64,000 bases of DNA from Fluviicola sp. (GTDB taxonomy: Bacteria; Bacteroidota; Bacteroidia; Flavobacteriales_D; Crocinitomicaceae): positions 2,863,228-2,927,227 of the forward strand of contig CP121319.1 of NCBI GenBank assembly GCA_043584915.1. The letters are read 5' to 3'. The position numbers and the translations under genes were made by a program. The notes below the pieces were generated by a model. The model did no database searches. It was not told the origin of the DNA and worked only from the letters and a program-made list of their open reading frames with translations. Position 1 is the stretch's first letter. Each line of letters begins with the position of its first letter. This document shows positions 37,537 through 50,079 of the stretch, one piece after another.

Positions 37537-37549
37537 GCGCACATATGCG
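37537..37549. promoter_or_regulatory. Upstream motif (gcgcacatatgcg) shared with the eCIS upstream region
   Basis: Its reverse complement cgcatatgtgcgc matches cgtatatgtgcgc (27695-27707) at 12/13 positions. Relative to the direction of transcription it has the same orientation as the eCIS copies. Lies 71 nt before the ATG at 37620. Confidence 0.5.
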
Positions 37550-37619
37550 TGAATTGTTGATTTGGCTTTTTTTAACCGAATAAAGACGTATATTTAAGAC
37601 TCTAGTCACTAAAATTACA

Positions 37620-47100: not shown

Positions 47101-50079
47101 AAACGGATGAAGAATCAGCTAAATGTCTATAAGAGTCAATTAGCCATTGAAAAGGAAGATTTTGAGAATTCTGGGAATGTCGTAACAAAGAGTTACAATC
47201 AATTTCAAATAGACTATTATCAAGACCGTATTCAAAAGCTCACAAGACAAATTCAAAGAGAAGAATTAACCACTGGTAAGTTTGAAGGGAATTTCCTCAC
47301 CGGTATCGATGGAAAAGTGACGATAATTCTTGAGGCATCAGGAGATAAAGAGGAAAAAGAAATAAAATCAGTGGTTGTAGATTACTTTGACACCGACAAA
47401 GTTCAAACGCAGAATTTGCGGGTAAAGAATACTCAAACAGGAAAGGAAATTGATTTTATCGGACTCACAACCATTGAAGGTTTTGGTGCAAAGAATATTG
47501 GAATGACTCGGAATGATGTCGATGATAAATTGTCCTTTGACCTCTTGGCAAATGGATCTGTCTTTGGTGGGGCTACTGCAATTGGATTTGTGAGCTCAGA
47601 GTTGTTTAAGCTAGATGATGTCAGTGCTTCATCGTGGTACATTAAAAAAATGAAAGATGTTCAAGGATATTCATATAATTTTGAAGATTTGAAAGCCATG
47701 TATGAGATTACTCCAGATGGAGGGTTGATTGAAGGTGGACTTGACTTAAGCGCAGACGGTTCCATTATAATTAATAATGAAAAAGAGTTCGCATACATAA
47801 CGGTAAATACAGACGACTTAATCAATGTGCCACTAATTGAAACAGATGGCTTTAGTATCAAAGGAAATTCCGATTCCATTGGACTTCATGGCCTTCATCT
47901 CACCGCAAAGTTGAAGTATCACACTTCGAAAGTAGGCGAAGAAACCAAATACCATATGGATTATGTGACCATAACAAAACTCAACATTGGACGCATTAAT
48001 TTATCGGGAACCCAAATTCATTTGGATGAAACCTTTGAAATGGGAATTGCTCAGGATGACACGCTATGGTTGGAAAATGTGACCCTGAAAAACCTAACGT
48101 ATGATTTCAGAACCAAAGGATTCAACTCCTTTGAGGGCTCGCTAACATCTGACGAGTTCAATTTAGAACTCATGCAAAACTTTTCTACCCTAAATAAAAA
48201 GAACAAATCAGTTTTAACCCTTCTTCAAGGAGGAATGTCGGGGGATAGCCTTTCCTTCGAAAGAGGATCTAATGGAAAGATCGATGTTGAGATTACCTCC
48301 CCAGACATGCTCTTTAATTTCCTTAAAGTACCAGGGTTGATGCTGAAGGCAGAAAACTTCTCGAAAAATGTGATGGGTGAAGATTTGGAGCCCTTAAAAA
48401 TTCTCTCAGCTGGGACAGTTACCTATTCAAGTCAAAATGAGCACGGCACAGAAGGTCACTTTCTGAAGGTATCTGGAGCAGAGTTTCATGGTGTGCCAAT
48501 TAGTGGTTTTTTTCAAAGTCCAATTGGTGGAATGAACATTAATGAATTCATTTTATCAGGTAAAGTAAATGAAGATTTAATAATTAATTATATCGATGGA
48601 AAATATGTTGAAATTAAAGCCGACGGAGCCGATATTACCGTAGAAAATATAGATCTCTATATGTCGGATACTCGTAAAATGAAACCCAAAAAGAAGATTG
48701 ACAGAAAAGAACCAAGAGTTGAAGATAGTAACAAAGACGGCACAATTGATGACATGGAGAATGCACAACACATTGCTAGATTGGTTGAGTATCACGAGAA
48801 TGTATACAATCGAAAACGTTCTCATAAGGCGCAGGAAAACAGACCGCAGGCAATAGAACAAGCACGTAAAAAATTAGGTTTTTCTGAATCATATCTCAAC
48901 AAGATTCTAGATGCTTACAATACTGCAATGATTCTTCAACAAAGAGGCGTGCCAATTGATAAAAATGGACAGAAACTCTTGAACGATTACAATAAATTTG
49001 CGGATGAACTCTATAAAATCACTGCTGGGCGAATTTCTGATGATTTTAATTTTTTAGATCATATGACCTCTGGATATGTGTCCATTTCGCTTTTTAATGA
49101 AAGAGCATTTTTACCGATTGTTAGGGTTAATCCTGAAAAGCAAAAGATGGTTACAACATGGCCCGTGGATAAGGATTGGGAAAAGGATGATGGTGGGGGC
49201 TTTAGCACATTTGTTGATTTGGGAACATTTATTCATCGCCTTACAGTAATTTTTGATAATAACATCGACGAAATGTCTTGGTTGGCCAATGCTGTAAGTG
49301 AAGACGAGATGTTTACGGAAGAAACTGCGAATTTAAGTGCTAATGATCTTGCATTGTACACAGATGTTGTTATTGACAACTATTTAGTAACGCTGGTAGC
49401 CGATTTAAATAGATATAACAATATTACTTTTAATGATCGCCAGTATGTTCGCTTGTCTTCAGTGATTGATACGATTATGTACAATCAGGCAGCAGATTCC
49501 ATGATGAGATTCCAGCCGCCCGATGATACTTTTCAAGCATTGACCGATAGAATGGATCAGTACTTTGTTCAATTGTTACATGATGAGATGAACCCAAGTT
49601 TTTCTTTGACAAATGTTAAGGTTGATTTGAAGGATAAAAATGATATTGACAAAGGACTTTTGGGCTTTATTACTTCTCAAGAAGATAGTTTACGATTCAA
49701 TATGAGAATTGATTTGAATCAACAAGTACTCCGCGAAATTACCATTGATGAAGAACAGCACTTCGTGAGGGCACTTGGGCCACAATTGCGCCTTTATAAC
49801 TTTAACCTTCCAAAATTTGAGCATTCAAAACGCAGTAAAACAGGAGGTAAAACCTTAATTAAAGGCAATGGAATAACAATTGAAGAGCTTAAGGTTGGGA
49901 AGTCATATATGCGGGTCGTTCCTGCGTCTGTTGATCGTGGTAGAAATAGGAATGATGCTGGTGATGACCATTCTGGATGGCTCACAGGTAAGAATGTAAA
50001 TATTAAGGATTTTGAAATTAAATTACCGTTGAAGGCAAAGCGCCAAAGAGTCCATCACAATAAGGCAAAGACAAAATAA
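44197..50079 (+). CDS. Giant hypothetical protein (1,960 aa), no leader and no recognised domain
   Basis: Single uninterrupted ORF and last gene of the operon. Has coiled-coil-like K/E segments (about 45870-45960 and about 47090-47270) and recurrent beta-strand-like motifs (ITIENLSMKNLTI, VTLKNLTYDF, MTVKDLELVD, VNIKDFEIKL). Confidence 0.8.
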   Translation: MTTFQKLQLRTVSAANASTSIKPLSLNELVNSLRSMAPGVMENSFDTDPRELTADEFASYEQKVAHVLELMNGIKPKNKYKFTQDKKRFQKQRKRVLAAFEVLQNMSFKEQDHFASHYTEVFDDVIGSLVLEDYQKFDAGLIPGVTYELLVNGERNPLLVILDTPKYYAEDVEVIEMALLLCSLVQVEESDTTTEGTKKKAFQEAVKGILNNHNRTEGLTKVIEEEVPETDYKLFIWQMLKLLKNARDSGGNVNTRAITAGMKFIGRGGFSKELILEHISLADFQRNKSDGGHVYGLQFDDSDVSIYADLKDGYKDHAKENGLENESGIDGAFIRVKGESIPILGMDYITSNMSAHFDAGAFTKVELVMTWDTKKTSDDVGGRKEPIQANIDLNNANLTLDNVLYRSRFLSKKRKEDGTLIENEMTEEQYSVLMGNITIENLSMKNLTITDELRKFKNNSEVIYRLTEGIQDQLYLLIDVILSMVSQTSLTPMDIKDFESFNNSAKRTILGADGVELKIGKGMIRNFVDSEGKVLGNVPLDGLTIKLNSQKAEAEDFDVELWKQQQELKALEEDLAELYKKKARFIKNHEGDFISKSKYINEFDETRKKSTIGKLIGEIDSLNNEISEKINSPITYTLSSNDPLGFSRAFYIDEMLRKTFQEKLGLFGLYDIQGLNEFTLTQGIEMNGSIGLDRISDTVLKIDEIAVPKLFDSAVHMDLGALRINGNDVNLSNLKGAISLKWSEVAPTGRGEVKSELRPIKIALTGGDMTVKDLELVDTTNKKPSFKIGGMVTLENTQMIFHSVGDFEGENNYKDIEFSCTSIVLDNVAQYQHALKDNPEIENWFVAQDGGTIRLSGINVRNKKSNALGINAAGNSVTSQELEVKATSGAFDNLLVDGFSINSNITKLRAVITNETETTPDNQVIRSTMKTELYFGLSELFVPDLTREMEGISLSHIPYDSDDIKKKIKRMKNQLNVYKSQLAIEKEDFENSGNVVTKSYNQFQIDYYQDRIQKLTRQIQREELTTGKFEGNFLTGIDGKVTIILEASGDKEEKEIKSVVVDYFDTDKVQTQNLRVKNTQTGKEIDFIGLTTIEGFGAKNIGMTRNDVDDKLSFDLLANGSVFGGATAIGFVSSELFKLDDVSASSWYIKKMKDVQGYSYNFEDLKAMYEITPDGGLIEGGLDLSADGSIIINNEKEFAYITVNTDDLINVPLIETDGFSIKGNSDSIGLHGLHLTAKLKYHTSKVGEETKYHMDYVTITKLNIGRINLSGTQIHLDETFEMGIAQDDTLWLENVTLKNLTYDFRTKGFNSFEGSLTSDEFNLELMQNFSTLNKKNKSVLTLLQGGMSGDSLSFERGSNGKIDVEITSPDMLFNFLKVPGLMLKAENFSKNVMGEDLEPLKILSAGTVTYSSQNEHGTEGHFLKVSGAEFHGVPISGFFQSPIGGMNINEFILSGKVNEDLIINYIDGKYVEIKADGADITVENIDLYMSDTRKMKPKKKIDRKEPRVEDSNKDGTIDDMENAQHIARLVEYHENVYNRKRSHKAQENRPQAIEQARKKLGFSESYLNKILDAYNTAMILQQRGVPIDKNGQKLLNDYNKFADELYKITAGRISDDFNFLDHMTSGYVSISLFNERAFLPIVRVNPEKQKMVTTWPVDKDWEKDDGGGFSTFVDLGTFIHRLTVIFDNNIDEMSWLANAVSEDEMFTEETANLSANDLALYTDVVIDNYLVTLVADLNRYNNITFNDRQYVRLSSVIDTIMYNQAADSMMRFQPPDDTFQALTDRMDQYFVQLLHDEMNPSFSLTNVKVDLKDKNDIDKGLLGFITSQEDSLRFNMRIDLNQQVLREITIDEEQHFVRALGPQLRLYNFNLPKFEHSKRSKTGGKTLIKGNGITIEELKVGKSYMRVVPASVDRGRNRNDAGDDHSGWLTGKNVNIKDFEIKLPLKAKRQRVHHNKAKTK

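Follow-up and report, generated by a model that had tools for sequence, protein, structure and literature searches.

The loading of cargo into an eCIS (extracellular contractile injection system) has been studied in AlgoCIS of Algoriphagus machipongonensis, where the AAA+ ATPase Alg15 is needed for the process and the particles formed by ΔAlg15 and E292A mutants are assembled yet empty. The AlgoCIS cargos, Cgo1 and Cgo2 (the latter of 1,228 amino acids, aa), comprise an N-terminal loading sequence that is required, a DUF4157 domain that is dispensable and a variable C-terminal domain. Published surveys (Zhang et al. 2012; Geller et al. 2021) have in turn described PVC-type polymorphic toxins accompanied by PVC-AAA and by a metallopeptidase, the PVC-metallopeptidase (DUF4157/eCIS_core). 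In the T6SS (type VI secretion system) of Enterobacter cloacae, the lipase Tle is countered by Tli, a periplasmic ankyrin-repeat immunity protein whose periplasmic localisation is needed for immunity. Here we analyse a seven-gene operon in a stretch of 64,000 nucleotides (nt) from Fluviicola sp. (contig CP121319.1, positions 2,863,228 to 2,927,227), which is referred to as the window and numbered from its first letter, and compare this operon and the eCIS encoded near it with the systems above.

The operon consists of seven plus-strand open reading frames (ORFs) spanning 37620-50079, separated by gaps of -4, 8, 13, 13, 10 and 18 nt, in agreement with the packed arrangement and coordinates of the original prediction. 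Gene 1 (37620-38912) encodes a 430-aa single-AAA+ ATPase of the Alg15/Afp15 type (PVC-AAA), intact and presumably acting as a cargo unfoldase or loader. It is followed, with a 4-nt overlap, by gene 2 (38909-39892), which encodes a putatively exported ankyrin-like protein of 327 aa, and then by four paralogs predicted to be exported, of which gene 3 (39901-40959) and gene 4 (40973-42025) carry ankyrin repeats matched by Pfam Ank, while gene 5 (42039-43100) and gene 6 (43111-44178) belong to the same ankyrin family. Gene 7 (44197-50079) closes the operon with a leaderless, Cys-poor, β-rich protein of 1,960 aa, a DUF4157-less relative of an eCIS_core protein and a candidate eCIS cargo or effector. 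We give about an even chance to the reading of these genes as a satellite module that provides the neighbouring eCIS with a loader and its cargo and that bears a hypervariable cassette. This reading is proposed because an intact gene for an Alg15-type unfoldase is encoded together with a leaderless, Cys-poor, eCIS_core-related giant while the loader internal to the eCIS operon is dead.

The sequence of gene 1 assigns it to the eCIS AAA+ family (Alg15/Afp15, PVC-AAA), of which it is the sole intact representative in the window. It matches Pfam AAA (E=1.2e-24) as well as the CDC48 and PAN subfamilies, and both of its nucleotide-binding motifs are intact, namely Walker A (GPSGTGKS, residues 231-238) and Walker B (ILFFDEGD, residues 285-292, with the DE pair at 289-290). 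The claimed collinearity of this complete ATPase with the destroyed eCIS ATPase was borne out for both domains, the N-domain matching the N-domain remnant (BLASTP E=4e-5) and the C-terminal part matching the C-terminal remnant (E=1e-15). The family returned 2,527 matches, and gene 1 aligns with its members at 96-100% length coverage. Among these members is P0110 of Marinigracilibium pacificum (37% identity over 96% of the length), whose locus (L016) shows the canonical order of tape measure, ATPase and eCIS_core proteins of 486 and 2,175 aa, the larger one being an eCIS_core/Ntox4 protein. Gene 1 itself, rather than being located beside the tape measure inside the eCIS operon, has an operon of its own on the opposite strand, about 10 kb away from the eCIS (measured to its Pvc16_N end), and several of its relatives are likewise encoded outside eCIS operons. 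The proposed link to a contractile injection system thus finds support in an ATPase family held in common with eCIS-internal loaders such as that of L016 and in the homology of the giant, over most of its length, to an eCIS_core protein; the suggestion of a cargo with its loader also matches the published role of Alg15 in AlgoCIS.

The neighbouring eCIS operon (9099-27493, minus strand) is complete-looking and encodes a Pvc16_N terminator, sheath, gp19 tube, CIS_tube, VgrG, gp25, baseplate J, large proteins in the baseplate and fibre positions and a CIS tape measure; the fibre-position protein gave no match in phages by tblastn. The tape measure is followed by the disrupted cognate ATPase (8174-9069, minus strand) and then by a 1,412-aa eCIS_core/DUF4157 protein. 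The remnant of the ATPase consists of an N-domain ORF (8488-9069) and a C-terminal ORF (8174-8500), the N-terminal fragment being annotated as a coding sequence in the NCBI contig. Alignment to intact homologs by tblastn covers residues ~2-142 in one frame, up to ~8635, and residues ~285 to the end in another frame, from 8632. Since the homolog matches break between residues ~142 and ~285, about 145 aa including Walker A are deleted, as read from the sequence, and the junction is frameshifted. The two parts of the remnant are 54% and 39% identical to P0118 but 39% and 25% identical to gene 1; the remnant is nearer to other lineages than to gene 1, and gene 1 is thus no recent duplicate of the eCIS ATPase. 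The 1,412-aa protein (3905-8143, minus strand) resembles Cgo2: an acidic repetitive N-terminal region is followed by eCIS_core (HExxH) at residues 278-352 (Pfam E=4.6e-28) and by a C-terminal portion of large size. The acidic N-terminal region, of the SEDDSEVQTM type, is encoded by tandem repeats at 7392-7777 (periods of 30, 96 and 135 nt) and is the counterpart of the disordered loading region of the AlgoCIS cargos.

The giant encoded by gene 7 has no leader, no transmembrane segment (maximum KD19 1.38) and two Cys in 1,960 residues. It gave no match in the hidden Markov model (HMM) libraries of Pfam (including the C-terminal domain of the type IX secretion system, T9SS), NCBIfam, PADLOC and PHROGs or among PDB sequences, nor did its profile match the PDB; accordingly no recognisable toxin domain was found in these four libraries or the PDB sequences. 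Internal repeats were not detected by BLASTP, and no match to the giant was found in plasmids or phages by tblastn. The original prediction of a protein with neither leader nor assignable motif therefore stands, and the HMM and Foldseek searches it had proposed yielded neither a family in the libraries for the giant nor a significant fold match for its modelled residues 1031-1960. Its description as an orphan comes close but does not hold strictly. An exhaustive phmmer search with residues 761-1960 against 1.84 billion representatives recovered five relatives: a 1,923-aa protein at locus L001, a 1,938-aa protein at locus L002, P0127 (1,810 aa, cut by the contig end), a 166-aa fragment, and P0129 (2,069 aa), which bears eCIS_core at residues 119-192 (E=4e-32). 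A word-indexed homology search with the giant alone or with a three-sequence profile returned only the query, this search being insensitive enough to miss the known relatives.

The relationship to P0129 is collinear and extends over most of the protein. Residues 64-735 of gene 7 correspond to 325-1013 of P0129 (BLASTP E=2e-18), residues 1208-1464 to 1430-1702 and residues 1613-1905 to 1762-2034 (E=4e-21), and the giant profile matches P0129 at E=7e-63 across positions 88-1883. Because P0129 is collinear with gene 7 and carries eCIS_core, the sequence places gene 7 in a small family in which a single member, an eCIS_core protein, bears the marker. In gene 7 the P0129-homologous region is preceded by about 60 residues containing a conserved motif, and the marker-less giants as a group have such an N-terminus of ~60 aa (S-x-S-I-K-x-[LM]-S-[LV]-x-E-L) in place of the ~320-aa N-terminal region and DUF4157 of P0129. 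As the last gene of an ATPase-led operon, gene 7 also holds the position that eCIS_core proteins hold in L009, L010 and L016. An AlphaFold2 (AF2) model of residues 1031-1960, built on five sequences, was poor (predicted local distance difference test, pLDDT, 59) and suggests a C-terminal half composed of a long-strand antiparallel β-sheet, helices, an α/β domain and a terminal β region. Assignment of a function from this model was rejected, as its Foldseek matches, all to β-sheets (porins, SprA, ApoB; best E=0.08), were insignificant and the pLDDT low.

A further feature of the operon emerged from comparison with L001, a locus in a metagenome-assembled genome of Crocinitomicaceae. By blastn, the two are ~83% identical up to position 39001, about 90 nt into gene 2, beyond which nothing aligns until 50096, 17 nt past the stop of gene 7, where similarity restarts at ~82-83%. 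At the protein level the flanking genes are 81-96% identical and the ATPase is the most conserved of all (97.7%), with the ankyrin protein at 38.7% and the giant at 31.5%. The giants of L001 and L002, a more distant pair with flanks of 62-75%, are more alike (44%), and the identity ranking across the three genomes is the same for the ankyrin protein and the giant. Judged from these sequences, a divergent allele has replaced a cassette that starts just behind the leader of gene 2 and extends to the gene 7 stop; clock-like divergence is not a fitting description because the more distant pair has the more similar giants. The conserved 5' end of the ankyrin gene is likely the recombination anchor. 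Replacement of this kind is typical of conflict loci, for example toxin/immunity pairs or receptor-binding proteins.

Genes 2-6 form one family by alignment. Each product has a hydrophobic leader, the sequence (Q/K)CSCDSLVAAI at the presumed mature start and four invariant Cys, and export is predicted because the proteins bear leaders together with the four conserved Cys; read by eye, the sequence in front of the Cys looks more like a signal peptidase I site than a lipobox. The leader, the CSCDSLVAAI sequence and the mosaicism reported in the original prediction were all recovered, but two clear ankyrin repeats per protein were recovered only in part. At the Pfam Ank cut-off of 21.1 bits, gene 3 (30.1) and gene 4 (24.1) pass, gene 2 remains sub-threshold and genes 5 and 6 have no match. 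The AF2 model of gene 3 (pLDDT 70.8) has helix-pair repeats along most of the chain, with β-hairpin insertions and a long C-terminal helix, and Foldseek matched it to ankyrin-repeat structures only, giving an ankyrin fold for this protein. As the helix pairs run along most of the model, what had been called a divergent domain of ~130 aa is probably a continuation of the repeat array. The mosaicism is seen in the pairs gene 3/gene 4 and gene 5/gene 6, in which identity is 95-100% over nt ~60-450 and over the final ~90 nt, against 40-65% in the centre; the leaders of genes 4 and 5 are identical. Gene 2 is the ortholog-like copy, at 39% and 38% identity to the single ankyrin proteins of L001 and L002. 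Against PADLOC the ankyrin proteins gave only a weak match of gene 3 to a candidate model (PDC-M72A, E=3e-4). Pattern scans for the giant and ankyrin families in two genome collections, two metagenome sets and one viral set yielded no members, the three metagenome matches being generic ankyrin proteins.

By analogy with Tli, the ankyrin proteins may be periplasmic immunity factors against an incoming toxin, which we put forward as a tentative proposal, short of an expectation. Their role is placed outside cytoplasmic loading because they are predicted to be exported, and an encounter of ankyrin protein and giant in the periplasm is the simplest account because the ankyrin genes and the giant are replaced together. 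Exported, amplified and mosaic ankyrin genes along with cassette replacement also fit the earlier suggestion of a toxin with an immunity array.

Recurrence of the arrangement was assessed in relatives' loci with 10 kb of flank, so that an eCIS elsewhere in those genomes is possible. In L001 (ATPase 98% identical) and in L002/L003 (71%), the latter two being metagenome contigs, a single ankyrin-family gene comes after the ATPase, again overlapping it by 4 nt, and a giant comes next. The module is found ~9-10 kb from the Pvc16_N/ComM end of an eCIS in three genomes, i.e., those of the window, L001 and L002. In L004-L007, whose ATPases are 47-51% identical and located beside gldN genes, ankyrin-family genes come directly after the ATPase (E≈1e-31, 1e-29, 1e-17). 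L004 further contains a 273-aa ORF homologous to residues ~96-311 of the giant (E=5e-11), and the giant may be degraded in this lineage. Two near-identical ankyrin-family copies lie on either side of that fragment (L004, 11299-13903). The contigs of L005-L007 break off within the ankyrin gene, as would happen if assembly were confused by repeated copies of that gene. Across loci the ankyrin copy number ranges from 1 to 5 and the giant is always single.

More distant ATPases of other Bacteroidota (41-44%; L008, L009, L010) head other effector modules, with no eCIS structural gene within the available flank. In L008 (11299-21275) a family ATPase is followed by a PG_binding/AHH nuclease toxin and Imm11, adjoining a CBASS-like cluster (SMODS, E2-CBASS), and L009 pairs a family ATPase with a 1,252-aa eCIS_core protein. 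Besides at least five eCIS_core proteins, one with a transglutaminase-like domain, L010 (1-21308) holds three family ATPases (489, 435 and 456 aa); small ORFs are interspersed, and no eCIS structural gene was present in these 21 kb. From the gene order at these three loci, adjacency of an ATPase and a following effector is general in the gene 1 family.

A mechanism can be envisaged along the lines of AlgoCIS. During particle assembly, the hexamer of the gene 1 ATPase would unfold the giant and thread it into the tube lumen, possibly recognising the N-terminal motif S-x-S-I-K-x-L-S-x-x-E-L; the internal ATPase being dead, gene 1 may also serve the 1,412-aa eCIS_core cargo. Following contraction, the giant would have its effect in the target, perhaps at the cell envelope. 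Immunity against giants arriving from sibling or rival cells would come from the exported ankyrin proteins, and extra paralogs could extend protection to other giant alleles. The conserved 5' and 3' ends of the ankyrin genes would function as recombination anchors, the divergent centre setting specificity, and a palindromic site present in both leaders may co-regulate the module and the eCIS operon.

Several observations weigh against a satellite loader-plus-cargo module. The giant has no DUF4157 (no Pfam match to eCIS_core (DUF4157, HExxH) was obtained for gene 7 or for its L001, L002 and P0127 relatives), no evident disordered acidic N-terminal region and no recognisable toxin domain. It shows no significant BLASTP match to the 1,412-aa eCIS_core protein of the window (best E=0.87), from which its N-terminus also differs. 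With 1,960 aa against the 1,228 aa of Cgo2, gene 7 exceeds any experimentally shown cargo, though a protein of about 2,000 aa does occupy the cargo position elsewhere, as the 2,175-aa protein of L016 illustrates. The three genomes in which the module is close to an eCIS are related, and this closeness may be no more than synteny; no eCIS structural gene was found within 10 kb in L004-L007, L008, L009 and L012. Both the ankyrin family and the giant family have too few members for co-occurrence to be tested statistically. Immunity genes are usually placed 3' of the toxin, whereas the candidates here are 5' of it, and loading as such offers no role to a partner that is exported. Co-regulation by the palindrome is suggestive only, the shared 12-mer described below being weak evidence.

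Some of the same observations can be gathered into an autonomous module of the polymorphic toxin/immunity type, independent of any eCIS, in which the ATPase serves as the giant's own chaperone or unfoldase, the giant is freed by lysis or another route, the ankyrin proteins guard the envelope and the proximity to the eCIS is coincidental synteny. Toxin modules headed by family ATPases do occur where no eCIS gene lies within 10 kb (L008 with AHH/Imm11, L009, and L004-L007); P0129 likewise has neither an ATPase nor an eCIS gene within that distance, and cassette replacement with an ankyrin array is typical of conflict loci generally. Yet the ATPase family and DUF4157 are strongly eCIS-specific in published surveys (odds ratio 2614), a 10-kb flank cannot exclude an eCIS elsewhere in the respective genomes, and the giant offers no alternative export signal, having neither leader nor transmembrane segment nor a T9SS C-terminal domain in Pfam. 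We consider such autonomy unlikely.

More improbable still is an arrangement with the roles exchanged, wherein the exported ankyrin proteins are the effectors (EAT2-like or directed at eukaryotes) and the giant is a non-toxic scaffold, adaptor or particle-associated structural protein. EAT2, an eCIS-associated ankyrin-repeat protein of Flavobacterium to which the paralogs are likened by description, is toxic to E. coli and adjoins DUF4157 genes, and members of the giant family keep their whole architecture rather than an N-terminal part with swapped C-terminal toxin tips. On the other hand, with a Sec-type leader and conserved Cys pairs the ankyrin proteins would leave the cytoplasm, which is the site of eCIS loading, and a copy number of 1 to 5 beside a single giant fits immunity arrays better. 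An anti-phage defence system, built of an IetA-like AAA+ ATPase and a giant effector in a defence-rich stretch, was rejected as very improbable: the AAA domain of gene 1 does match IetA/IteA models (PADLOC E=1e-36; NCBIfam 94.9 bits) and KwaB-like and CHAT/TPR genes are found a few kb upstream, but the IteA score is far below its 510-bit cut-off and covers a generic AAA domain only (residues 182-427), the giant has no match in PADLOC, the operon has no protease partner (IetS), exported ankyrin arrays are no feature of defence systems, and both the N-domain shared with eCIS ATPases and the homology of the giant to an eCIS_core protein point to eCIS.

Regarding the proposed co-regulation, the original prediction of a 13-mer common to the leaders of the seven-gene and eCIS operons was not upheld at that length, as the exact common word is a 12-mer, ATGCGCACATAT, located at 37535-37546 (plus strand) and 27698-27709 (minus strand). 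In the 120-nt gap before gene 1 it is part of an imperfect palindrome, TCATGCGCACATATGCGTGA (37533-37552, plus strand), and the eCIS leader contains three CGCACATATACGC-like copies of the motif (27676-27767, minus strand). The palindrome is perfect at either site of L001, reading CGCACATGTGCG ahead of the ATPase and TTGCGTACATGTACGCAA ahead of the eCIS; no such site is found 5' of the ATPase in L002. A 12-mer is shared by four of 78 intergenic pairs in the window, the other such words being A/T-rich, and scoring for terminator-like hairpins also picks out the site ahead of gene 1. The palindrome at 37533-37552 may accordingly be an operator held in common with the eCIS leader, or the terminator hairpin of the sigma/anti-sigma pair upstream. 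A sigma-70 promoter scan gave nothing above shuffled sequences, and the sigma-70 model is not applicable to Bacteroidota.

Immediately 5' of the module are genes for an extracytoplasmic function (ECF) sigma factor (36254-36778, plus strand; NCBIfam sigma70-ECF E=4.8e-12) and, between it and gene 1, an anti-sigma factor (36783-37499, plus strand). They are possible regulators of the module. The pair recurs in L001 (8636-9881; 87% and 82% identity) and is missing from the L002 locus, for which reason it is, on present sequences, no fixed partner of the module. Between the eCIS and the seven-gene operon the window carries ComM, KwaB-like, CHAT/TPR and DUF7619 genes. The KwaB-like gene (PF16162, E=1e-37) lies with an upstream 196-aa ORF at 29607-31164 (minus strand), between ComM and the CHAT/TPR gene, and the equivalent position in L001 (2795-4147) holds three unrelated small ORFs, so this position looks like a small variable defence islet. 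On the 3' side, a leader-bearing protein of a 243-257-aa family is encoded at 50080-50853 (minus strand) and in L001 at 18081-18812, and the same gene in L002 (9114-9869) is upstream of the module and divergent. The occurrence of the module on different sides of this gene suggests insertion or rearrangement. A 235-aa candidate ORF with no family match (50821-51528, plus strand) shares 33 nt with the 5' end of the gene at 50080-50853.

The original prediction had known of no description of such a module, which is too strong for its core logic: eCIS AAA+ ATPases beside polymorphic, often very long DUF4157 toxins have been described since 2012, and this principle is already published. In a non-exhaustive look at the literature, we did not find described a satellite ATPase-led effector module as a recurrent unit, the combination of ATPase, exported ankyrin proteins and DUF4157-less giant, or cassette replacement beside a loader conserved at 98%, combined with loss of the internal one. 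If the satellite-module interpretation is carried further, satellite Afp15/Alg15-type ATPases could mark exchangeable cargo islands that re-arm one eCIS chassis, with each loader dedicated to its adjacent effector and the module able to replace the chassis's own loader; the giant would represent a new class of envelope-acting toxin of ~220 kDa whose ankyrin immunity diversifies by gene conversion, and the eCIS would thus be an interbacterial, kin-discriminating weapon. This extrapolation we regard as doubtful.

The choice and loading of eCIS cargo are only now being worked out, which limits the use of these particles as programmable protein-delivery tools. The locus in the window combines a naturally dead internal loader with a conserved satellite loader beside swappable cargo and so offers a direct genetic handle on loader-cargo specificity. 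The family ATPase could also mark orphan eCIS effectors missed by operon-centred surveys. Should the ankyrin proteins be immunity factors, they would constitute evidence for an antibacterial, kin-discriminating Bacteroidota eCIS, and the giant would be a new toxin family.

Among described systems, AlgoCIS is likewise a Bacteroidota eCIS. Compared by description, Alg15 and gene 1 are both single-AAA+ proteins with N-domains of similar size and a Walker B Glu at 292 and 290, respectively, and the AlgoCIS layout of an ATPase gene directly 5' of large cargo genes is found in the internal operon of the window. The differences are that the intact ATPase of the window is in a separate operon ~10 kb away on the other strand with the internal ATPase deleted, that the putative cargo encoded by gene 7, whose size is 1.6 times that of Cgo2, has no DUF4157 and no evident acidic, disordered region at its N-terminus, and that five genes for putatively exported ankyrin proteins sit inside the module. 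The PVC toxins (Zhang et al. 2012; Geller et al. 2021) are similar in having a constant element beside a recombining, diverse toxin part, in their very long proteins with linkers of more than 1,000 aa and in their linkage to CDC48-like AAA+ proteins, and P0129 carries their marker domain. Gene 7 departs from them in lacking the marker and in that the whole giant and ankyrin body is swapped, not the C-terminal tip alone; moreover, many PVC toxins are reported to have no adjacent immunity genes, whereas the window has up to five candidates 5' of the putative toxin. With Tle/Tli the locus shares an exported ankyrin-repeat protein encoded beside the leaderless effector of a contractile machine. 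Tli, however, is a lipoprotein encoded 3' of tle, with no sequence relationship found to the window ankyrins, and the giant shows no lipase or other recognisable domain, the immunity function being here a proposed one. The orphan VgrG/effector/immunity islands and orphan immunity arrays of T6SS share with the module a satellite position with respect to the machine's main cluster, a dedicated accessory factor beside each effector, variable immunity copy number and cassette exchange. The module in the window differs from them in having a putative AAA+ unfoldase as accessory factor, where they have a spike or adaptor, and in that an eCIS is extracellular and released.

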